The notes beneath the pieces are model-generated. The model saw only the letters and a list, made by a program, of their open reading frames with translations, was not told the origin of the DNA and did not search any database. A stretch of DNA of 64,000 nucleotides from Octopus vulgaris. Lineage: Eukaryota. The stretch spans positions 44,702,001 to 44,766,000 of the forward strand of contig OX597838.1 of the NCBI GenBank assembly GCA_951406725.2, given 5' to 3'. Position numbers and translations under genes: made by a program. Position 1 is the first letter of the stretch, and each line of letters starts with the position of its first letter. This document shows, piece after piece, positions 3,550 through 58,772 of the stretch.

Positions 3550-3878
3550 GAATCGTCGTCTTTGGCCATGAATGACTGTCATTGCACCTAGAAAGTTACC
3601 CACCGAGGTACAAATGCGGGCAAGGTTGCCTATGGAAGACCAGCAGTCGCCCATGCATGCCAATCTCCTATCTCCACGCCACCGGTGTTATGCAAGGTAA
3701 AGGCCGATACAGCTGGGACCAGTGACGTCGCAACACATTTTCACAGCTAAGTGAAATTAAGCAACATGAAATAAAGTCTCTTGCTCAAGAACACAACGCA
3801 CAGCTCGGTCCCCGAAACGAACTAACTATCTCATGATTGTGAGCTTGACGCTCTAACAACTGAGCCATGCGCCTTCAC
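3550..3878 (-). mobile_element. tRNA-derived SINE (family C)
   Basis: Minus strand GGCGCATGGCTCAGTTGTTAGAGCG...TGTGTTCTTGAGCAAG; similar to 47815-48066. Confidence 0.75.
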
Positions 3879-6859: not shown

Positions 6860-7099
6860 GGAATGGTTTCTCCTTTCCTTCCCTAAGCAGATCGGATTTG
6901 AAATCAGAATGTGGAGAGGCAAAAATATAGCGAAAAGCATTTCTGCCGACGCGCCGCCAACAATTCGGCCATGCGGCCACCAGCAGAGCAATGTGAAATG
7001 AAGTGTTTTGCACAACGTTCCGTCCGGTCTGGGTATCGAACCTAAGATCTAGCGATCTTGAGTGCAACACTCTAACCACTAGGCCTAGTGATTAAACGC

Positions 7100-7194
<95 letters not shown>

Positions 7195-7572
7195 CGATTG
7201 CGCGAGCGCGATATTCAGTTGATTTAAACATTTATTCGAAGAGAAATTACAATATTATAGAACCTATAATTTAAAAATAACATTTGGTTGGAAAGCCTTG
7301 TGACGTTTTTGACATGCTCACTTTGTGACAACTGCTTCAATATGGTGAAATAAGTATGACATTTTACATTGTAATATTCTTCTCTTCTTCGCTGATTACT
7401 TTATATCATTGTGTATCGATGTTTGCCCTTTTAAAACTAGTTTAGATGAGAAGCATACCAGATACCGCATGCTGAGCGAATCCAAAAGCAGCTCCCCGGC
7501 TATGAAAGCCGTAAGAAATGTTCGTTCCGTCTTATTTTATGGAGTTTCGTAATTTAAATTCTAACTCACCAA
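6860..7572 (-). repeat. Left arm of an inverted duplication (partner 9858-10481), including a family C SINE
   Basis: 7200-7572 is a near-identical reverse complement of 9858-10230; the SINE part is more diverged. Confidence 0.9.
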
Positions 7573-8500
7573 ATGTTGGTACTTTAGATCCAGCAACTAT
7601 TGGTCTCAGTTTGAGGTTAGTAGGTCTTAGTAATTTTATGTCTTGGTTTTTCTGTTTTTTTTAATGCTCTCTTTATTTCGCGGTTTTTGTGGATTTGGGG
7701 TAATCTGTTGAAATTGCTCTCTTTGATAACAGAGTTGCATAAATAATATTTTTCTTTGTCTGTGAAGGAATCTTGGTATTCATTAACTAGTGCTTTTATT
7801 TTATTCATTATTGCTTTCTCCAGGTGCCTTGGTTCTACCTTGTAATAGGTTTGGTCTGTTAGAATTTCCAATATTTTATCTATAAGGTAGTCTTTGTCCA
7901 TGATTACTATCGCCTTTCCCTTATCGGCTTATTTTAGGATGATTGAATTGTCCTTCTTCAGTGTCAGTAAGGCTTCAAAACCTTCACGAAGGTTTTTTTT
8001 TTATTTTTGCCTTTACAGTTACTAAGGGGAAATTTCGAAATTGTGTCAGTATATGCGTCTAAATGTTTGTCATTCACCTTGTAGGAGGTGAAGTGGGATT
8101 TATTTCTGACAATTGATTCGCCATTTATATCCTTATTGCCGAAGAATTCTATAAACCGGTGGTGATGGTTAAAATGCTCAAAATCAGCTTTTAGTTCAAT
8201 GAGATTAGGGATGGGTGTCGGGGTAAATTTGAAACCATGCAATAGGAGATTCATCTCATTCTTGTTGAGGTTTCTAATTGACAAATTTATGATCTTCGGG
8301 TCTATATGTTCTGTGTGTTCATTAAAATTTTCTGTTGCGTCGGGCGCAATTATGATATTTTTTTTCCCTAAAAAAGGAATTGTATTATTGTGCTTCCATT
8401 TTTTGTGGTTTCCGGAGTTCTGGTTCCCTCGAAGGTGAGGGGATGTTTCATGTTCTTTGCATGTATCTCGTTGTCTATAGGTTCTGTTTTCATCCCCTCT
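7573..8500 (-). mobile_element. Penelope-like element, 5' half (N-terminal domain and start of RT), degenerate
   Basis: KIINLSIRNLNKNEMNLLLHGFKFTPTP, ADKGKAIVIMDK, LPQIHK, LRPIVAG. Confidence 0.88.
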
Positions 8501-8580
8501 TCTATTTTTACTCTTTATTGTATATACATATCTACATGCATAAATGCATACATACATATTTACTTATATATATATATATG

Positions 8581-8633
<53 letters not shown>

Positions 8634-9039
8634 ACACACATACACACATACATACACATACACACACATACACACACATACACACACATATATAACGTGC
8701 GTTTTATTGTTGAACAAATCAGTTACACATGTAAGAACTGTTTTCTTCCGGTAAATTGAAAAATGAAATTTAACATTTAGGATTTTTCACACAAATAGTA
8801 TAGGATGCATATTGACACTCTCATCTTGGTGCCGGTCGAGGGAGTGTAAAGATAAATGCTTATTCGATATTTAGTATAAATGGCAATAACCCTTCCAACG
8901 GATAAAGAGGAACGAAAGAAAAATAATCTCACATCCAAGCCATAGGAGCAAATAAAATGTACAAAACATATAACATAGGCTAATTGATTTCTTCATAGAT
9001 AAAAAAACAACCACGTTGGATACAGCTGTAACACACTTC

Positions 9040-9319
9040 AACCCATTTTTGTTATTATTTATATTACACTTCACTCGGAACCTTCTTTGCATTGGATCTT
9101 GAGCCCACAGTGGACCGTGGACGGCATGCTGGAGTATACTCTCGTGGGATTTTACGTATACGTTGTGTTTGATCGATACTTGTAGATGTATTCGTAACTG
9201 GAATCTGTATGTGCTTTGGTAAGGACGTGGATGTCGTTGCACGCTCCTAAAAAACAGGTATGCTGTCCAGGACACTACCTTGGTACCTTTCTTATCAAAA
9301 TACCGCGATTCTATTCTGC
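9040..9319 (-). pseudogene. Possible decayed exon (Ig C2-like end)
   Basis: TTATTTTTAG| acceptor; GRIESRYFDKKGTKVVSWTAYLF, then after a frameshift in a T run LGACNDIHV...SSMPSTVHCGLKIQC; donor not clear. Confidence 0.3.
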
Positions 9320-9414
9320 CTAAAAATAATTACGAACAAACACACATACACACACCTATATGTATCTATATTACAGACAATAAATTTTGAAGGAATAAGA
9401 TGAAAACATTTTGA

Positions 9415-9480
9415 CGGCAAACGGCTACGGGACTCGAACTCACATTACTCTGATACCGGCCGAGTACTCTACCATTAAAG
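9415..9480 (-). mobile_element. tRNA-like SINE head
   Basis: Minus strand TAATGGTAGAG (A box) and GAGTTCGAGTCCCGTAGCCG (B box); related to 35870-36265. Confidence 0.55.
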
Positions 9481-9536
9481 GTGTACTCTGATATTCAACA
9501 CACAATTAATGTGTCCCCTCATGTTTTTTTACGCAG

Positions 9537-9860
9537 TAGAAAAGATTTTAATATCTGACTATTATGGCTTTCTAGGAAATCCAACGACCACATACAATGT
9601 CTGGAAGGGCTGTGCTGTTGATTGATTCGGAGGAGAGAATAGGATTTTGAATTTAATTACTATTGAAATTATTCCTTTATGTCAGTTGAAAAGAATAACA
9701 CAAACACAGCCAGGATTAAATGGTTCTATTAACTTTTCTTGTCTTCCCATTTGGAATATCCTTCAAGATTTATTACAGCATATAGAAAAATGCGAGAAAA
9801 ATTATTTTTCTTGTTTCTGAAAATGTAAGGATGTGAAACAAATTGATAACCTTCTACTTG
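9537..9860 (+). pseudogene. 324-nt symmetric phase-1 exon with two in-frame TGA codons, Ig-domain sized
   Basis: TTTTTTTACGCAG| acceptor and G|GTGAGT donor; single frame EKILISDYYGFLGNPTTTYNVWKGCAVD*FGG...NFSCLPIWNIL...YFSCF*KCKDVKQIDNLLL. Confidence 0.55.
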
Positions 9861-10481
9861 GTGAGTTAGTATTTAAATTACGAAACTCCATAAAATAAGA
9901 CGGAACGAACATTTCTTACGGCTTTCATGGCTGGGGAGCTGCTTTTGGATTCGCTCAGCATGCGGTATCTGGTATGCTTCTCATCTAAACTAGTTTTAAA
10001 AGGGCAAACATCGATACACAATGATATAAAGTAATCAGCGAAGAAGAGAAGAATATTACAATGTAAAATGTCATACTTATTTCACCATATTGAAGCAGTT
10101 GTCACAAAGTGAGCATGTCAAAAACGTCACAAGGCTTTCCAACCAAATGTTATTTTTAAATTATAGGTTCTATAATACTGTGATTTCTTTTCGAATAAAT
10201 GTTTAAATCAACTGAATATCGCGCGTGCGCACACACACACACAAAGTCGCTTGGCCTAGTGGTTAGAGTGTTGCACTCAAGATCACTAGATCATAGGTTC
10301 GATACCCAGACCGGGCGGAACGTTGTGCAAAACACTTCATTTCACATTGCTCTGCTAGTGGCAGAACGGCCGAATTGTTGGCGGCACGTCGGTAGAAATG
10401 CGCTTCGCTTTACTTTTTGCCTCTCCACATTCTGATTCCCACTCCTCCGACCTGCCTAGAGAGAAAACGAGAAAGCATTCC
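9858..10481 (+). repeat. Right arm of the inverted duplication (partner 6860-7572)
   Basis: Reverse-complement match from TTGGTGAGTTAG to AGAAAGCATTCC. Confidence 0.9.
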
Positions 10482-10489
10482 AGTATTTT

Positions 10490-12235
10490 TGTCAGGTCTA
10501 GAATTCCTCCAGCACATTCCGCCTACTGTTCCAGAAGGTACTATGCTTATAAGCTTTGTTGTCACCAGTCTTTATACGAATACACCTCACACTTTGGGTC
10601 TGGAAATAGTCAAACACTGAGTAGAGAAACATACAGGACTTATAAATGAACCCTTCAAAACTGATTTCATCACCAAAGCCACACGCCTGGTACTGGAAGA
10701 AAACACCTTCAGATTCGATAATAAAACATAAGGACGAACAAAGGGCGCGCTTATGGGGACACGGTTTTCACTCTCATATTCTAACCTAGTCATATGTGAC
10801 TTGGAAGAAAAGCTTTATGAGGAAGTAAAGAGAACCTTTAATCAGTATTACAAAAAATACATTATTAAAAAGTGGAAACGCTTCCTCGATAGCTACTTCA
10901 TCTTTTGGTACAAATCGAATGAGGCCCTACAAACATTTAATAATATACTCACCACACTTCATCCACCCATCAAATTCATGACAGAATCCAGTTGCAATGA
11001 ATTGCCATTCCTGGATATCCACATAAAAATACAAAACGCCACAATCACAACAGAGATATTTTACGAAAAAAAAAAAAGAGAAACGAACACACACCAATAC
11101 TTGAATTTCTACTCTTGCCATCCCTCACACATCTAAAGGGACATCCCATACAGCATGGCAAGAGGCATCTGCAATATAGTGATTGACCCCCAAATTCGTC
11201 AAATCCGACTCAACGAGCTCAAAGAATTCCTAACAAAACATAAATACCCCTTAGGATTAATAAACGAGGAAATTAAAAAGGCAATGAAGCTGAACATTGA
11301 ACAACTAAGAACACAAAAGGAAAAAATTAATGAACACACAATGAAAAAATCTGATTGACAAAAGCCCCATACGAAACAATGGGCGTCAGCCAGAAAGTCT
11401 CAGAAAACACCTCACAAGAGCAAAATTCACACCAGAGAATGAAACAGAATTCTCCGTAAAAGAATATGGAGATAGCAAATGTGAAACATGCAACAACAAC
11501 ACTAACTTTAAATACTTAGAAAGTAGTTCCCACATAAAATTCAAGAGCGGATTCTCGTTGAAAGTAAATACAGATATGAACTGCAAGATGCAGAATCACA
11601 TATACTGTATTACTTGCCTCAACCACAAAGAAAATTACATCGGCGAAACAAACAATTCTCTCTGCCAGCGTGCAAGAATCCATCGACAACACATCCGACA
11701 AGAGGAATTGCGCAAGATTCCACTGAGCAAGCATCTAGAAATATGCGGTTAAGAGGAATTCAAAATCTTTCCCTTTTACAAATGTTCAAGTGATGATCCA
11801 CAATTCCGAGAAGCAATAGAGCTATCTCTCTCTATATAAACGGCAGTTTGTCTGTGTGCGTGTCTGTGTGTCTGTTAGGTTGTACCCTCACCCTGACCAC
11901 CACGGCTTTCAGCCGATTCTGATGAAACTTGACACACACATAGCCCAATGTCATAATTCAAAACTAACGCAGCGAAAATTTTGAAAAGTTCCCCCAGTTC
12001 TGGAAAAAAATCGATAAATTCGACATGGGGTCGAGAATCAGAAACACAAACCACAGACTGTCTAGGGGACGCAACTCGACCTTTTTAACTCTCAAAAAAA
12101 TTTACCATAATTTTTTTGCTATTTTTTGGCTATAACTCTCTAAAAATGCTTTATAGTTATTTCCCTTACAAACCCGAGCAACGCCGGGCAATACTGCTAG
12201 TACTTCATAAAAAAATTCACTTCAAAATTAAATGA
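10490..12235 (+). mobile_element. Penelope-like element, 3' half (RT core and GIY-YIG), degenerate, interrupted by a Helitron
   Basis: VTSLYTNTPH, GALMGTRFS, WKRFLDS, LPFLDI, YLNFYSCHP, HIYCITC...YIGET...RARIH; EAIEL|YFIKKF resumes after the Helitron. Confidence 0.92.
11825..12200 (+). mobile_element. Non-autonomous Helitron
   Basis: 5' TC, 3' hairpin CCCGAGCAACGCCGGG plus CTAG; inserted between A and T with no TSD; removing it restores the PLE frame. Confidence 0.9.
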
Positions 12236-12313
12236 AATGTTTGAAAGAGAAGCAAAGGAACTACATTTTTATCATTAATCTTTAATATTAATAATGATCA
12301 ACGAAGAGATAGG

Positions 12314-12410
<97 letters not shown>

Positions 12411-13009
12411 CTACCGGTGCTAGGGTTATCCTATAACTTAGTGGTTTGGAAAGAGGACCAACAGGGACAAACAGAAGAAGAATAAGGATTAATAGAAGTA
12501 ATTTCTGATTCGTTTTACCGAATAAAAGCATTTAAATTTGGTACCTCAACTTGGCTGTTAGTTTTTAGGATCTCAGATATCTTAATACTCATAATTTTAC
12601 TGATGCAAAATACTCAACATTTTGCTGACATGGAAAAGCCAGTTACTCTGATAGATAGAAAAGCATTAGACACTTCCGTATGCACCAGCATTGTCATGTC
12701 GCTTCTACAATACGACAGCTAACTTCGGATATATTTACAACTTAGTTCAGTTGCCTTCAGAACGTCAACAAACACGCCATTTTAATCGATTAGAACAATG
12801 GCCTCTTTTTACGATTATCTATGTTTAATTGTTTAAACTGGACAACAAACATTAAGACAAGGAAAACTTCTCAAGTCGTATACAATATTATCATTGGGGA
12901 AAAAAAATTCAAAGTCTTACAGTTGTTTCTGGGATATCCCTGAATATGTAATATTCCGTTATCAGCGAAACTAATTGATTAGATCACCTGTGAACTAATC
13001 CCCCATAAC

Positions 13010-18876: not shown

Positions 18877-18914
18877 CTGTTACTCTGAGTTTCACGTTCC
18901 CGTTCGTCGGACAG
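18877..18914 (-). ncRNA. Minimal type I hammerhead motif (left arm of hairpin)
   Basis: Exact reverse complement of 18940-18977. Confidence 0.7.
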
Positions 18915-18939
18915 TTTTTGCTAGAAATTCTAGCAAAAA

Positions 18940-18977
18940 CTGTCCGACGAACGGGAACGTGAAACTCAGAGTAACAG
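18940..18977 (+). ncRNA. Minimal type I hammerhead motif, CCGACGA core
   Basis: CTGT-CCGACGA-ACG(GGAA)CGT-GAA-ACTC(A)GAGT-A|ACAG; all three stems pair. Confidence 0.75.
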
Positions 18978-24595: not shown

Positions 24596-26097
<1,502 letters not shown>

Positions 26098-26833
26098 GTG
26101 CAGTCTTCTAGCGCCTACAGAGTATCTCAACAGGCACGATAGAGCTGCACAATATATTCACTGGGTAATCTGTAAAAACCTGGATTTGCCCCATGAAAAA
26201 AACTGGTGGGAACACAAACCACCCCCAGTGCTTGAAAATGACCACATCTCATTCCTCTGGAACTTCACCATTCAAACTGACAGGAAGATAGATGCAAATA
26301 GGCCAGACATCATATTGAAAGACTTCAAACAAAGAACATGCCTCCTCATTGATATGACTGTCCCAATCGATATAAACGTATCTGTCAGGACCTACCAAAA
26401 ACTGAGCAAATATAAAGATCTTGAAATAGAAATCAGCAAAATGTGGAAGCTGAAGACTAAAACAATACCTGTTGTCATAGGTGCCCTGGGAATGATAGCA
26501 AAAGGGGCTGATAGCTACCTAACTCAGATACCAGGAAACCCAAAAATGGCAGAAGTTCAAAAGATAGTGCTCATGGGAACTGCTCATATCCTACGCAAAA
26601 TACTCTCCATGTAACCTCAAGGTTTAAAACAACCATAATTTTCGGTTTAAAAAAAAAAAAAAAAAAAAAAACTTTTTTTTTTAGACATTCATTAGTACAA
26701 CATCCCCACCCCCAAATATATGGCACACTAGGCATAACAACAACATGAACTTCCAACCCTGTTGTCTCTTGAGGTCTCTGGGTGAGACTTGGATCCAACT
26801 TGTACAAATATAAAGCAAAAGTCAAACATAGAA
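26098..26833 (+). mobile_element. Second copy of the same R4/Dong-type family, inverted relative to the first
   Basis: YLNRHDRAAQYIHW...RPDIILKDF...KLSKYKDLE; flanked by (AAT)n. Confidence 0.9.
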
Positions 26834-27112: not shown

Positions 27113-27152
<40 letters not shown>

Positions 27153-27211
27153 CATTATTATTATTATTATTAAATAATAGATATCATCATCATCATTATT
27201 ATTATTATTAT

Positions 27212-27560
27212 TCAGTAGTTTTATTTTTATAGCCTGCTTTCACTTCACTACCGAGCACAGCTCTGTGTGCCTTGGGTATGTGCTGTGATTTGTTGTGATG
27301 CTCTGATGGTTATTGTATGGAAAGTGTTCTGCGTAGGATGTGTGTAGTGCCTAGTAGTGCAATTTTCTGTATGCTATATGTGTTTGTAAGTCCTGGTGTT
27401 TTTGTTATGTATTTGTCTGAATATTTTTTTATCATGCCTAATGCACCTACTATGATAGGAATTGTTTCTGTTTTTAGATTCCACATTCTGGTTACCTCTA
27501 TTTCCAGGTCATTGTATTTTGAGAGTTTCTCCATTTCTTTTAGAGACACGTTGTCTCTAA
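27212..27560 (-). mobile_element. 3' fragment of a second R4/Dong-type family
   Basis: EKLSKYNDLEIEVTRMWNLKTETIPIIVGALG; lies in a TAA array. Confidence 0.85.
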
Positions 27561-27622
<62 letters not shown>

Positions 27623-27623
<1 letters not shown>

Positions 27624-27971
27624 CAGTAGTTTTATTTTTATAGCCTGCTTTCACTTCACTACCGAGCACAGCTCTGTGTGCCTTGGGTATGTGCTGTGAT
27701 TTGTTGTGATGCTCTGATGGTTATTGTATGGAAAGTGTTCTGCGTAGGATGTGTGTAGTGCCTAGTAGTGCAATTTTCTGTATGCTATATGTGTTTGTAA
27801 GTCCTGGTGTTTTTGTTATGTATTTGTCTGAATATTTTTTTATCATGCCTAATGCACCTACTATGATAGGAATTGTTTCTGTTTTTAGATTCCACATTCT
27901 GGTTACCTCTATTTCCAGGTCATTGTATTTTGAGAGTTTCTCCATTTCTTTTAGAGACACGTTGTCTCTAA
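27623..27971 (-). mobile_element. Tandem duplicate of 27212-27560
   Basis: Apparently identical sequence and identical end points, offset 411 bp. Confidence 0.9.
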
Positions 27972-28053
<82 letters not shown>

Positions 28054-29170
28054 GAGTGAAAGAGGCAGTGTATCCCATCAAAGTGACACTGGGGTAAAAT
28101 ATACGAAGCCCAGTATACCCATTATGATTACTCGTACACCAAACACATGCATCACAACCATATGTGCGGAACATGGTGATTTCATATCAAGATAAACAGC
28201 ACATGACCTTGCAGGTGGGGCCCAGTTAGAAATGTATTCAGGTCGAGCAGCCCACCCTGCTCAAAAGGTCCCTGAATAAGGGTTGTTTAAGGATGTAGAA
28301 CGAACCACCCATGTTTCCAAAGGTGAATTATCAAAACCTCCAAGAATTCCTTTCAACACGCGGTTATAATGCTTCCCCCCTACTTCTGCTCGTGGTCAGA
28401 GATGCACATATCGTCAGCCACTAAGGGACATGCTCAACTGGTTAAGGTCAAACAACTGACAAGCACATCTGTGGTATTGAGCAGAATATTTGCTGCAGCC
28501 CATCTTTTGTACCAAGACAAAAAAATGTACATGATAGCACTTCCAATCAGTTAAGATCAGAAGTCATGAGAGCCACTGCCTGGTACTGCATCAGGGCTTT
28601 GATTACTGCAGCAGGGCATATGGCGGGTGAAAGAGCAGTGCATGCCATCAAAGTGACACTGGGGTAAAATATACGAAGCCCAGTATACCCATCATGATTA
28701 CTCGTACACCAGGCACATGCATCACAACCATATGGGCGCAACATGGTGATCTCATATCAAGATAAACAGCGCATGAACTTGCAGGTGGGGCCCAGTTAGA
28801 AATGTCTTCATGTCGAGCAGCCCATCCCGCTCAAAAGGTCCCCGAATAAGTGTTATTTGAGGATGTTGAACCAAGCACCCATGTTTCCAAGGGTGAATCT
28901 CTCCAAACCCCAAAGAATTCCTCTCAACACATGGCTATGATGCTCCCCAACTACCTCTGCTCGTGATCAGAGATGCACATATCGTCTGCCACTAAGGGAC
29001 ATGTTCAACTGGTTAAGGTCAAACAACTGACAAGGACATCTGTGGTATTGAGCAGAATATTCTCTGTAGCCCATCTTTTATACTAAGACAAAACAATATA
29101 CATGATAACAATCCCAGTCAGTTAAGATCAGAAGCCATGAGAGCTACTGCCTGGTACTGTATCAGGGCAT
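28054..29170 (-). mobile_element. Two tandem ~545-bp copies (28054-28597, 28625-29170) of a non-coding interspersed element
   Basis: Colinear diverged copies between (ATT)n and (CTT)n; no recognisable ORF; strand inferred from the (AAT)n tail. Confidence 0.7.
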
Positions 29171-29259
29171 TTCTTCTTCTTCTTCTTCTTCTTCTTCTTC
29201 TTCTTCTTCTTCTTCTTCTTCTTCTTCTTCTTCTTCTTCTTCTTCTTCTTCTTCTTCTT

Positions 29260-34313: not shown

Positions 34314-35745
34314 TTGCATGGTCGGGTCGTCGGCGACTAAACCGGCAACCCCACCAAGCCTGCTTGGTGAGGAGGGTGTTTATTGGACACCCTGCGGGAT
34401 GAAAAACAAAACCCGTCAAAGGGCGGAGGAACTCTTGAGAGTCAACGGCCATCCAATAAATGTCTTAAGGCTGTATCATGCGCGGGGATATAGAAATAAT
34501 CGGACTGAATACCCGATCACGCGGTTAAACCATTGGGAGTGAAGGACTCCTAGCCTTTGTTAGGGCATCCTTCTAGGAGAAGGTAACTCAGGTAACTGGG
34601 ATAACTCCGACATAAAACCTGCGGCTCAGTGGTTACCGATGATGTTGATTTGTTCTTCTTTTCGGATTATGGCTGCGGTTGCTTAGTGAGTGGGGCAGCC
34701 ACTATGTATGTCAAAGGTTTCCCAGTCTATTATTCGTGACCTCATTTATGTAGATGACTGTGACTTAGTCACTCATACAGTGGATGACATGCAAATACTA
34801 ATGAATTGCATTTCTGCTTCTTGCAGGGCATTTGGACTCAGCATTAGCCTGGACAAGACTGTTGTAATGTTCCAGCCTGCACCAGGAAATCCATATATGG
34901 AACCAGCTATCTTGGTTGAAGGAATAATTATGAAGGTAGTAGACAGGTTTGTCTACCTGGGCAGCACACTCAGCCGTTCTTGCTCCCTGGATGAGGAAAT
35001 ATATTTCAGGTTGCAGAGAGCAACTAATTCCTTTCGGTCTCTTCAGTCTCGTGTCTGGTCCCAACATGGCATCGCAGGGCCAACAAAAGTTGCTGTGTAC
35101 CGTGCATGTGTACTGACATCGCTCCTCTACTCATATGAGACATGGACTCTGTACAAACGTCAGGTAAGGGTCCTTGAACGCTTTCTCAATGTTGGCTGGA
35201 CCTCAAAAATTCCAGACACACAGATCCTGAGAATAGCTGATATATTGAGTATTGGGGCGATGTTGCACAAGCACCGGTTACGTTGGACTGTGGACACCTT
35301 ATGAGAATGAAGGATAGCAGGATTCCTAAGCAGATGCTTTATGGAGAACTTGTGAATGGAAGGAGACTCCGGCAGAAACCAAGGCTACGATTTAAGGACT
35401 GTGTCAAGTCCTCGTTAAAGGCCTGTGATATGCAGGATACTGACTGGGAGAACAATGCCTGTCATCGCCACAGTTGGAGGAAGCAGGTTAAGGATGGGAT
35501 CGACACTTTTGAGAGAGCACCTATCCAGCATGAAGAACTTAAGCAAGCTGCGCGAAGGCGCACAGCTCGTATAGTGAATTGGGAAAGCTTGGTCTGCAAT
35601 GTTTGCAGTCGTATATGCTTGTCAAGAGCAGGGCTCATTAGCCAATAACGGAGCCGCAAATGCAAAATATAAGTTTGTCCTAGAGCGCACAATGTTCCTG
35701 AAGGTCGGCAATGGTCTTCCTCGGTCACGAGTGGACGGCCATCAT
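34314..35745 (+). mobile_element. RTE-clade LINE with a large internal deletion, inside an (ATGT)n array
   Basis: Structured 5' UTR (CTAGGAGAAGGTAACTC) joined to RDLIYVDDCDL, FGLSISLDKT, FVYLGS, LLYSYETW, RIPKQMLYGEL and a C-terminal CNVCSRIC finger. Confidence 0.9.
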
Positions 35746-43277: not shown

Positions 43278-44465
43278 TTCAGAATGAGATAAAAAAAAAC
43301 AAGACTATGAAGATTTTAGAACATTTATAAATAGGTCTTACAGCTGTTTCCAGGATATTTTTTATATCCCTTCATCGGAGACGATGTGAGAAAATGGTTA
43401 AGCAATAGTTAATTTAGATAAGATACGAAATAGAGAGTGAAGTGGAGGAATGAAAATAGATGTGAGATATGCAGGGATATTGCATTTGTAGATCCATTAC
43501 TTAGGCAGAATGGTATACATATAAGATTCCAATAGTATCTAAAATTGGTCATTGTAAATACTAATAGTATTTAAAATTGGTTATTCCAAGTATAGAGTTT
43601 GTAGAAAATATATATGTGAAGATGTATACAGATGTATATATTAGACATGCATATATATATTTATTCAGATGTTAATACATATCAATATCTACTACAAAGA
43701 TTTTACCTGTCCAACCACGTAATCTATATTTCTAAATTCTTCATTCCACCATATTACTACCCCTCTCTCTGCCCCATCACTATCACTACATAACTGACAC
43801 TCCTTTACCTTTTACACTCTTTATACCTCTCTGTCTCTAATCACACCACATTCTTTCTATCCGACGCTCCTTTACTCTGTACCCTATCATCTTTTTACAC
43901 TCTAATATCTTTCTCTCCCTATCACCCTCATCTCCCCATTCCTACTTTCAAATTATCTTGACTCACCACTAACTGGCACACTTTCCCTATCTTCATCTCT
44001 TCATTATCTCTCTCCTTGTTTTTTTTTATCTCCATTTTCTTTATTTACTTTATTCATCTCTTCCTGTTTTTTCTTTTTTCTTCTCTTTTTTTCTCTTTCT
44101 TTATTCCTCTCTTCCTGTTTTCGGTTTGATGGTGGGTAGTCTTTCACTCTGTGAAATGGACGGGCAGAATCTACTATGATCATGGCTGTCTAGATAGTTT
44201 TTGTCATAGTTCCCTTGCGTTGACTCCACGGAACTTTACTTCTTTCTCACAGATAATCTCAATGCATTTCTCATAGTAAAATGTATGTTTATAGATCGGT
44301 TGAGTGAAATTACGTCCATACTACCCATAACACAAGCTGTGAGGTCGTTGGAGTGGTAGCAACAACTAATTCTACTGAGGAGATTCTCCGTGCTCACACA
44401 GACATCAGGGGGAATCCCAGTGAGTGGTCGTAATATCTGTGAGAGGAAGAAATCCAAAAACGAAA
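43270..44465 (-). mobile_element. Deleted Penelope-like element (RT fragment and 3' repeat)
   Basis: FLSQILRPL...VSTENLL...VMGSMDVISL; purine-rich spacer, then an HHR. Confidence 0.65.
43335..43382 (-). ncRNA. Minimal hammerhead motif, CCGATGA core
   Basis: GTCT-CCGATGA-A-GGGATAT(AAAAA)ATATCCT-G-GAA-ACAGCTGT-A|AGAC. Confidence 0.75.
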
Positions 44466-44906: not shown

Positions 44907-45231
44907 AGTAATACTAAGTAATTAAGGGTTTAGCAACGATTTGCCTCACCACACACCGAATTTAGAAATAGCAGTCAAAGAGTTATAGCTATTCTTTCTA
45001 CTAAAAGGGAGATCTCAGTAAAACCGCAGCACTTGAAAGGCAAACACAGACAGGCAAGAGAGAAAGAAATGACGGCAATCTATCTTGCCTGTCTGTGTTT
45101 GCCTTTCAAGTGCTGCGGTTTTACTGAGATCTCCCTTTTAGTAGAAAGAATAGCTATAACTCTTTGACTGCTATTTCTAAATTCGGTGTGTGGTGAGGCA
45201 AATCGTTGCTAAACCCTTAATTACTTAGTAT

Positions 45232-45235
<4 letters not shown>
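44907..45235. repeat. Fold-back inverted repeat, 153-bp arms with a 23-nt spacer
   Basis: 44907-45059 is the reverse complement of 45083-45235; ends at (TA)n. Confidence 0.95.
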
Positions 45236-47472: not shown

Positions 47473-47536
<64 letters not shown>

Positions 47537-47754
47537 TTGAGTTTCTAAATCTCTCGTAGAGAGGTGTACGGTGATGGAGCGATATAATGGTTGTATACTG
47601 TCAATCTAACAAGAACGTGACAGTAGGGGGTACACCACCGTTATATAGCCCTAGGAGGCATCGAACGCCTCCTGACAGCTTCGACACATTTTATCCTGTG
47701 TCCTTATATACACATACGAAGGGGAGACAAACACCCCCAACCGCCGGAACTGCA

Positions 47755-47800
47755 TCTAGGGACACCGTGTTTCAGGATCATTGTCCTTCATCGGCCTAGA
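47755..47800 (-). ncRNA. Minimal hammerhead motif with a 6-bp stem I, in a TA-flanked element (47535-47803)
   Basis: TCTAGG-CCGATGA-AGGA(CAATGA)TCCT-GAA-ACAC(G)GTGT-C|CCTAGA. Confidence 0.82.
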
Positions 47801-47814
47801 GTTATATATAATAA

Positions 47815-48066
47815 ATAAATGCGCCCTTTTAAAGCCTAGCCAGGCTCATGGGCCCGGTTTCCCGGCTTCAATGGCGTATGTGTTCCCCAGCTGGACGGGA
47901 CGCCAGTCTATCGCAGTGTTACTCATTTGTGCCAGCTGAGTGGACTGGAGCAACGTGAGATGAAGTGTTTTGCTCAAGAACACAACGCGTCGCCCGGTCC
48001 AGGAATCGAAACCACAATCTTACGATCATGGTGTTGATACCCTAACCACTAAGCCATGCGCCTCCG
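47815..48066 (-). mobile_element. tRNA-derived SINE (family C-related)
   Basis: Minus strand GGAGGCGCATGGCTTAGTGGTTAGGG...GGTTTCGATTCCTGGACCGGGCG. Confidence 0.85.
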
Positions 48067-48073
48067 CAATATA

Positions 48074-48353
48074 TAGTAGCGGATTGCTCGATGGCAAATG
48101 GACGCCTACACCATAAGAAGCCATATAAGGGGGCCCATGGTAGTACCTAAGGGGCTTATCCCCTCAAGGCTGGGATTTTTTAAATTCACTCTTGGAAGAA
48201 TGCATTAATTATTTCCGCATGTCTGTTTTTGTAGAGAGTTGAAAAGAAAACTTTTAACACACACACACAAAAAATTAAATTATATTGTCGTAGTTGCGAG
48301 TGGGCCCCCTTAGTCTCCTAGAAATCAATATTTTTAGACCCAGTCCGCCACTG
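48074..48353. mobile_element. MITE, possibly hAT-like
   Basis: Imperfect TIRs TAGTAGCGGATTG / CAGTCCGCCACTG; internal inverted GGGGGCCCA / TGGGCCCCC. Confidence 0.5.
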
Positions 48354-48613
48354 TATATATATATATATTTTTTTTAATATATATATACAGATAAAGGGTG
48401 AAATATAATTAATTTAATAAAATCAACAAATTTCACCAAATAGTTTTTCGGTATGGAAAAGGACCATATTCGGTAAAATATAATGGCTGCTATTTCTAAT
48501 ACTTTCGGTATGTGGTCTAGCAACCTGTTGCAAAGACCCTCATTGTTATAAATATATATATATATATATAGCAATAATAATTCTCTAAAAGAGATATAGA
48601 CAGTAACTGCTCG

Positions 48614-49003
48614 ATAACATAAGGGACTAAAGCCATCTGAATATGGCTAGGGACAGGGCAGGGTGGTGGGGGTGTTACTGTTGCATTTAGCCCCAGGCGA
48701 ACATCGACGTCACCAGAAAGGCCCGACACCGTCACGGTGTCCTTAACCTCAAAGGGAGGTAATTCCCCGATGAAGCGGAAACCACACACGGACCATGGTT
48801 TCAAGGTGTATTACCTTGAAACCATGGTCCGTATGTGGTTTCCGCTTCATCGGGGAATTACCTCCCTTTGCAGGTTAAGGACACCGTGACGGTGTCGGGC
48901 CTTTCTGGTGACGTCGATGTTCGCCTGGGGCTAAATGCAACAGTAACACCTCCACCACCCTGCCCTGTCCCTAGCCATATTCAGATGGCTTTAGTCCCTT
49001 ATG

Positions 49004-49007
<4 letters not shown>
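48614..49007. repeat. Fold-back inverted repeat, ~195-bp arms with a 5-nt loop
   Basis: Arms differ by only a few changes; apex AAGGT-GTATT-ACCTT. Confidence 0.95.
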
Positions 49008-58737: not shown

Positions 58738-58772
58738 GTTTCCGACGAAGAGCTCCGCTCGAAACGTTAGAC
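58738..58772 (+). ncRNA. Minimal hammerhead motif in a ~200-bp TA-flanked solo element (58666-58870)
   Basis: GTTT-CCGACGA-A-GAGC(TCC)GCTC-GAA-ACGT-T|AGAC. Confidence 0.65.

Follow-up and report, generated by a model that had tools for sequence, protein, structure and literature searches.

A predicted hairpin leader behind a hammerhead ribozyme motif in end fragments of two probable Penelope-like element families of Octopus vulgaris

The pseudo-LTR (pLTR) ends of endonuclease-positive Penelope-like elements (PLEs) carry type I hammerhead ribozymes (PMC4209133, PMC8557442), and inverted 5'-truncated copies as well as a tail of 30–40 bp on one end have been described for these elements (PMC8557442). 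A dimer model of hammerhead action has been proposed (PMC4209133), the role of PLE hammerheads has been called unclear (PMC8557442), and pLTRs are sufficient for an element to be mobilised in trans (PMC3846280). The signal by which a PLE reverse transcriptase (RT) recognises its RNA has been mapped roughly and in one lizard element only, Poseidon of Anolis carolinensis: its protein needs RNA from about the ribozyme cut site onward, the RT starts in a stem-loop about 85–92 nt past the cut, two start sites define the tail, and the hammerhead cleaves only in the presence of the protein (PMC11167929). According to the same source, the main substrate is unprocessed RNA, and no reads had either end at the cut site. 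In an octopus, 190 PLE families were reported (PMC13282606).

A 64-kb window of the Octopus vulgaris genome (the whole stretch analysed, 64,000 nt of AT-rich animal DNA full of microsatellites) contains two repeat fragments, E1 and E2, that are comparable to these systems. E1 (47531..47803, minus strand) is a hammerhead-bearing fragment; its 3' end lies within a (TA)n tract, its 5' end within a SINE-like repeat's AT-rich tail. Its complete type I hammerhead motif (47755..47800, minus strand) includes both catalytic boxes, a cleavage triplet and stems I–III, arranged as in type I. Stem I consists of 6 bp (47800–47795 with 47760–47755), the 5' catalytic box (47794–47788) is a U4C variant, the 3' box occupies 47773–47769, stem II has 4 bp and stem III has 3 bp with a near-palindromic loop; the cut is predicted after 47761. 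For the monomer, the predicted energy of the active fold is −6.6 kcal/mol versus −12.0 kcal/mol for a blocked fold, and the predicted helix III of a dimer has 8 of 9 pairs at −9.3 kcal/mol. The E1 folding energies agree with the dimer model (PMC4209133), and by modelling helix III could form in a dimer of either element. Rfam hammerhead models gave no match in the window at gathering score and were absent from the 22 matches up to E 10.

E2 is a palindrome (48614–49007) with arms 97% alike and its centre at the stem II loop of its own ribozyme. The mirror arm (48571..48812, minus strand) comprises the 3' half of a hammerhead, a leader, a coding frame and a tail, and the plus arm (48813..49007, plus strand) is an inverted copy with the fold-back at the stem II loop (about 48808–48812), which terminates in (TA)n and has no tail. 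The tail, 43 nt long (48571..48613, minus strand) and containing a 5-bp hairpin, is found on the mirror arm only. Both arms have the 3' half of the hammerhead alone, the inversion having replaced the rest, namely the 5' box and the 5' strand of stem I. In the mirror arm the 3' box (48802–48798, minus strand) is accompanied by the stem II loop and a palindromic loop 3, with a predicted cut after 48791; the predicted cut of the plus arm follows 48829 (plus strand). The location of the shared motifs downstream of a cleavage site, as claimed in the preliminary description, holds for the complete motif of E1, whereas E2 is missing the 5' parts just named. A candidate antisense hammerhead in E2 was dropped, being without stems I and II.

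E1 and E2 are homologous across about 225 nt (nhmmer E 2.2e-4 for E1 positions 44–267, searched in the 64-kb window) and identical at 55% of 209 aligned columns. The full alignment scores 112 versus a shuffled mean of 58.9, reached by 0/2000 shuffles. Local alignment of the module alone, i.e. of the hairpin-bearing part described below, gives 70 versus 32.6 (0/2000), and that of the sequence 3' of it gives 47 versus 32.6 (11/2000). Judging by these alignments, the likeness is ordinary homology, continuing beyond the module as far as the 3' ends. Every motif listed in the preliminary description was found at its place and in its order, and E1 and E2 have the same distance between the end of hairpin 2 and the last motif. 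The two elements that it named are indeed two independent sequences, but the copies number three, since 48571–48812 (minus strand) is the mirror arm of 48813–49007 and the arms are 97% alike. Several letters given there as conserved vary within the family, with common alleles at 48744, 48740, 48723 and 48706.

It may be concluded that E1 and E2 are very probably end fragments of two PLE families, with an RT gene not linked to them. E2 has an adjacent inverted 5'-truncated copy and a 43-nt one-sided tail recurring across copies, and is a dispersed repeat; both fragments are inserted in microsatellite or AT-rich DNA. A palindromic loop 3, the inverted truncated copy, the tail, microsatellite targets and dispersal are common to them and to the PLE pLTR ends with type I hammerheads (PMC4209133, PMC8557442). 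The ribozyme stems of E1 are canonical (6, 4 and 3 bp), in contrast to the minimal form in PLE pLTRs, and a multi-hairpin non-coding leader after the ribozyme, a feature of E1 and E2, is not described for PLE pLTRs in the accessible parts of the same papers (PMC4209133, PMC8557442). No RT or endonuclease gene is attached to either fragment (144 of the 173 candidate frames of the window were scanned); GIY-YIG and RT-related matches lie elsewhere in the window. The inserted copies themselves are ordinary fragments.

The lizard Poseidon element is like E1 and E2, by position, in the RNA past the cut, in two tail-defining 3' ends and in a coding tail (PMC11167929). Its ORF begins inside the ribozyme, whereas about 150 non-coding nt come first in E1 and E2, and about 90 nt separate the cut from the AC-rich stem-loop at which its RT starts, whereas the ends of E1 and E2 lie about 177 and 220–230 nt past it (PMC11167929). 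Metazoan non-LTR retrozymes have a canonical type I hammerhead, a unit of 230–270 nt and self-paired RNA and are related to pLTRs, all of which is similar to E1 and E2 (PMC7229834; bioRxiv 10.64898/2026.07.22.740005). Unlike the retrozymes, E1 and E2 show a 3' coding signature and no tandem array, and E2 has a PLE-type tail and no end-to-start joint (PMC7229834). Assignment to non-LTR retrozymes was rejected: tandem ribozyme units were not found (no E2 joints), and a coding signature is present. The UTR structures of R2 provide a functional analogy, namely folded RNA just upstream of the RT start that is bound by protein, and the 5' ribozyme product of R2 needs end protection, which is analogous to the leader discussed here (PMC12222951). 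R2 differs in being another class of element, in having an HDV-like ribozyme and in the location of the element in the 3' UTR; no common sequence or fold is shown (PMC12222951).

The window contains a number of other repeats. A decayed ORF of a Neptune-like PLE is present in two opposed pieces, 7575–8560 (minus strand) and about 10480–12310 (plus strand), of which the first carries the N-terminal motif (at 8302) and the second the RT, the zinc-finger linker and GIY-YIG (10480–11750), interrupted there by another insertion; its named relatives are molluscan, and the module was not found near it. Three other ends with a hammerhead core, at 43346–43378 (minus strand), 18889–18965 (both strands) and 58742–58765 (plus strand), reach (TA)n about 60–110 nt past the core, the one near 18925 being an inverted pair. 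None of the three has the module, which is therefore family-specific. A tRNA-derived SINE-like repeat with A and B boxes, at about 47811–48070 (minus strand), is located directly upstream of E1 on the same strand, so that read-through could transcribe the E1 ribozyme; related copies were found at 3744, 10245, 39240 and 40386. A 329-bp fold-back at 44907–45235 (96%) has an arm related to 48391–48550, which adjoins the E2 tail, and is probably the end of another family. Spaced inverted repeats connect 7183–7572 with 9858–10243 (97%) and 25038–25581 with 26099–26642 (95%), the latter pair enclosing a weak zf-RVT match at 25572–26003. There are also an RT remnant at 34690–35301 (plus strand; RVT_1 E 3e-5) and tandem direct duplications at 27141–28052 and 28056–29171, of about 500 and 545 bp (96% and 90%).

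On the 3' side, E1 and E2 contain homologous open frames of 25 codons each (47531..47605 and 48572..48646, both on the minus strand), which begin after an in-frame stop and have no AUG in frame after it. The last ~60 nt of the two align as peptides with a score of 51 (0/5000 shuffles), none of the other 8 frame pairs scoring above 27. Across 19 codons, mismatches by codon position 1/2/3 number 8/2/13 (Fisher p 6e-4); the alignment includes an indel of one codon, and the test is post hoc, because the frame pair was spotted after related proteins had been seen. An earlier tail frame, co-terminal in both copies, was rejected with a score of at most 27 versus 51 for the right pair, and a coding role of the module itself was rejected in view of stops in E1 and of a common stop-making allele and 1-nt indels in E2. 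Both peptides show a weak likeness to the motif at the N-terminus of Neptune-like PLE proteins: among 127924 windows they rank 17 and 61, but they score 2.8 and −0.1 bits against it versus 27.2 for the true copy at 8302; the near-invariant Asn of the motif is absent from both, hhalign places them on it with a probability of just 0.3%, and Pfam gave no family for either. In E2, the 48605 allele is synonymous, and the 48613 allele, at 15–88% of depth depending on the run, replaces a shared Arg with Gly (both hand-read), which counts against present-day constraint on the frame. Since a coding signature occupies the last ~60 nt and no in-frame AUG precedes it, the module appears as a leader of about 150 nt between the ribozyme cut and the frame. 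As far as the sequence goes, the frame bounds the module at its 3' side, and this is new in comparison with the preliminary description.

Within the leader of E1 (minus strand), a shared 5-nt motif (47749–47745) and a weak hairpin H1 (47738–47721), together spanning 47721..47749, are followed by H2 (47683..47702, 6 bp, pair probability 0.88), an extended H3 (47647..47680, with a 4-bp basal helix, an internal loop and an upper stem at 47673–47653) and H4 (47596..47625, 8 bp, pair probability 0.94), and a tail hairpin of 5 bp (47563–47551) lies inside the open frame. Fold prediction for the E2 mirror arm (minus strand) gives the 5-nt motif (48780–48776) with weak H1 (48768–48754), together 48754..48780, then H2 (48725..48741, 7 bp), extended H3 (48689..48723) and H4 (48631..48648, 6 bp). 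The hairpins of the plus arm (plus strand) are H1 48852–48866, H2 48880–48896, H3 48898–48932 and H4 48973–48990. The pair probability of H2 is 0.88–0.98 across all three copies. That of H3 is 0.96 in E1 and 0.09 in the full-length fold of the E2 mirror arm, changing to 0.05–0.74 with common alleles, and H3 is present in the minimum-energy local folds (111–121 nt) of all three sense copies and absent from the fold of the antisense strand of E2. Its basal helix absorbs the last motif of the preliminary description. H1 has no double changes, and competing folds exist for it. On these models H2 appears solid, H3 is probable and longer than first described, H1 is doubtful, and H4 and the tail hairpin are candidate additional hairpins; thus, of the three hairpins described initially, H2 and probably H3 stand, while H1 is weak and H4, the tail hairpin and the true length of H3 had been overlooked. 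A long-range helix pairing the G-run and a C-run further downstream was rejected, as it costs 4–10 kcal/mol and has a probability of about 0 in E2. A tRNA-like or pol III promoter module was also rejected: ARAGORN found 0 genes, and A and B boxes do not occur together in both copies; a run resembling the B-box consensus is present in H3 of E1 only. An HDV-like ribozyme, in which P1 encloses P2 and P3 in a nested double pseudoknot, was rejected too: by eye, the sole P1 candidate is a closed hairpin, and there was no Rfam match.

The RNAalifold consensus of E1 and E2 contains H1 and H2 as well as five outer pairs of H3. Its energy is better than that of class-preserving column shuffles (z −3.56, 1/300; −4.95, 0/300; −5.61, 0/150), in a comparison that takes no account of stacking context and concerns a region picked after the fact. 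Covariation, proposed as a check of the structure in the preliminary description, was not significant in this two-family alignment: 3 of the 16 named pairs changed on both sides, as many as in 28/500 shuffles, and 10 of the 16 are invariant. Double-changed pairs were likewise not in excess over column shuffles (178/300 for the module, 34/300 for H2 and H3, 84/150). In the H2/H3 core, all 3 changed pairs were altered on both sides with pairing kept. E1 pairs with a probability above 0.8 were kept in E2 in 11 of 14 cases for H2 and H3, versus 7.5 expected (P 0.049), and in 19 of 31 for all helices, versus 16.4 expected (P 0.23). As a single sequence, E1 is more stable than shuffles (z −2.3 to −2.9), and E2 gives z values of −0.45, −0.84 and 0.02.

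Population variants were taken from the contigs of 4 sequencing runs (of 24; three organisms) and aligned to the E2 mirror arm. The numbers of matching records per run were 493, 178, 599 and 49, with 80–100% likeness, as in a diverse dispersed repeat. Among the 10 variant sites listed, two are in the H2/H3 stems and both keep the pair: the common allele at 48740 (H2) changes an A-U pair to G.U, and that at 48723 (basal H3) changes G.U to A-U. The 48706 allele sits in the H3 loop, the 48643 variant breaks the loop-closing pair of H4, and of the remaining sites one is in the linker and five are 3' of H4. Hand-read loose ends belong to a sister subfamily that retains H2 beneath a different loop and has a G-run change weakening H1, and one hand-read contig has lost 3 nt within H3, retaining the outer five pairs. 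Both 3' ends of E2 recur in the contigs of the 4 runs: loose (AT)n ends occur at 48614 in two runs, and several of the pieces listed start at 48571–48574. End-to-start joints for E2 were absent from the contigs of these 4 runs, so there is no sign of its tandem or circular forms.

The structure had been called selected in the preliminary description. Covariation does not establish selection, but a structure of the sense strand is likely for H2 and H3, because the consensus fold beats shuffles, stem alleles keep pairs, wobble variants form G.U on the ribozyme-bearing strand and the antisense strand of E2 loses H3. In our opinion, selection on H2 and H3 within the sense RNA is rather likely. Placing this structure at the 5' end of the cleaved RNA is less secure, since the main substrate of the lizard element is unprocessed RNA and no reads were found at its cut site (PMC11167929).

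Of the three functions proposed earlier, i.e. RT recognition, cap-independent translation and end protection, RT recognition would have, by analogy with the lizard element, the best positional precedent (PMC11167929). We tentatively read the module as the leader of two likely PLE families in which H2 and H3 may form a cis-acting docking site for the RT of the element; if both the PLE identity and selection on H2 and H3 are granted, such a role would apply in somewhat over half of the cases. The RT would dock on H2/H3 and start cDNA synthesis 20–80 nt further 3', at one of the two 3' sites, copying through the leader and the ribozyme. After copying the ribozyme it would either stop, yielding E1, or fold back at stem II, yielding E2. 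Against docking, E2 alone is not unusually stable and its H3 competes with another fold, the RNA required by the lizard element is coding rather than leader (PMC11167929), and the coding frame of E1 and E2 matches the N-terminal motif of PLE proteins only weakly.

The same fold may instead serve as a translation leader or as a shield of the 5' end of an uncapped cleaved RNA, whose frame would be started without cap and AUG; we consider this unlikely. It is consistent with this that neither copy has an AUG in frame after the last stop and before the conserved codons, and 42 of 80 PLE proteins with the anchor motif have a called start within 24 residues before this motif, hinting at missing upstream AUGs, although such late starts may be gene-calling artefacts and decay or non-autonomy of the copies themselves is possible. 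In virus UTRs, cap-independent translation is supported by hammerhead cleavage (PMC13725137), but no RNA-seq reads of the lizard PLE started or ended at the cut site (PMC11167929). Near-cognate codons precede the conserved block in E1, and there are none in E2. That a hammerhead 3' product is left without a protective fold (PMC12222951) agrees with a shield; against one, the first 10–11 nt past the cut lack a stable fold.

There is a similarly low probability that the shared motifs reflect ancestral identity or DNA-level internal promoter elements, with hairpins persisting as identical letters still pair. The 55% identity over 209 columns, the 10 of 16 invariant pairs, the non-significant covariation and the shuffle-like folding of E2 agree with shared ancestry, and internal promoters are known in PLE pLTRs (PMC8557442). 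However, the stems remain closed even where loop lengths and inner pairs differ, all 3 changed pairs of the H2/H3 core are altered on both sides and still pair, and the alleles favour G.U on one strand; as for promoter DNA, a TATA-like run is present in E1 only.

Very unlikely, in our estimate, is the location of H2–H4 within a retained intron of ~120 nt, splicing of which would join a start codon behind the cut to the frame, the hairpins tuning splicing or retention. GT...AG pairs do exist in E1 (47717–47598, 120 nt) and in the plus arm of E2 (48874–48994, 121 nt), at near-matching columns (46/48 and 176/179) and both in phase 2, where they link a column-7 AUG to the frame, and 5' UTR introns are known from PLE pLTRs (PMC8557442). 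However, 11–16 open start/donor/acceptor combinations exist per copy, which makes a single match cheap. Moreover, E2 has a poor donor, this acceptor is missing from the sister alleles of the loose ends, the mirror arm reads GUG at the AUG column with no other letter among the variants listed, and no joint was found in the contigs of the 4 runs, the RNA origin of which is a guess.

An anti-ribozyme strand in the 5' part of the module, keeping the ribozyme off until a protein binds, is highly improbable: protein-dependent cleavage is known for the lizard hammerhead (PMC11167929), and E2 has directly after the cut a 16-nt reverse complement of both catalytic boxes with a 4-nt spacer (48838..48853, plus strand; mirror 48767–48782; 619/200000 shuffles) that pairs with its 3' box in the minimum-energy fold, but the 5' box of E2, with which the stretch would have to pair as well, is outside the window. 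The match is poor in E1, where loop 3 of the ribozyme itself blocks the core, the stretch could be what is left of an old fold-back, and H2–H4 are left unexplained.

The preliminary description did not recognise a named motif, and the comparison with Rfam that it suggested gave no family anywhere in the window at gathering score; sub-threshold microRNA matches reflect the palindrome. A profile search of the window for the module found only the three training copies, and unfiltered the best score in 7000–13000 was 8.8 bits. Pattern searches gave 1 match in metagenomes, within a bacterial gene, 0, 13 and 0 matches in viral collections and 0 and 14 in genomes, without a real homologue, and profile model R1, run on 28 pattern-matched loci, gave none below E 0.78. 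The search for PLE proteins in viral contigs gave 0 of 7 candidates, and 1 of 400 prokaryote assemblies contained a PLE-like fragment, with the module absent (one genome unscored). This RT fragment (G154:C6:17099-20560) is probably host contamination, and some related PLE proteins are filed under bacterial symbionts. Absence of the module from metagenome, viral and prokaryote collections is expected for an animal repeat. A literature search, which largely left subscription papers outside, found no description of such a leader, and motif terms are absent from the accessible supplement of PMC8557442; PMC12602865 and PMC10085705 contributed nothing further. The consensus library of PMC13282606 may already include the families of E1 and E2. 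By its modelled fold, the module is probably an undescribed variant in a known element class, with a structure that is probable rather than proven, from two families in one animal group.

With stems that persist at 45% divergence, a leader between ribozyme and coding frame offers compensatory-mutation tests a compact target, and such tests could address RT docking, translation start and splicing. It is quite unlikely, in our opinion, that the one leader of ~150 nt is a dual switch in a PLE clade, combining docking of the telomerase-related RT with capless, AUG-less translation of the element's protein after the hammerhead cut. If this were true, PLE hammerheads would gain a defined job, and the leader would present a minimal RNA handle for a telomerase-like enzyme.
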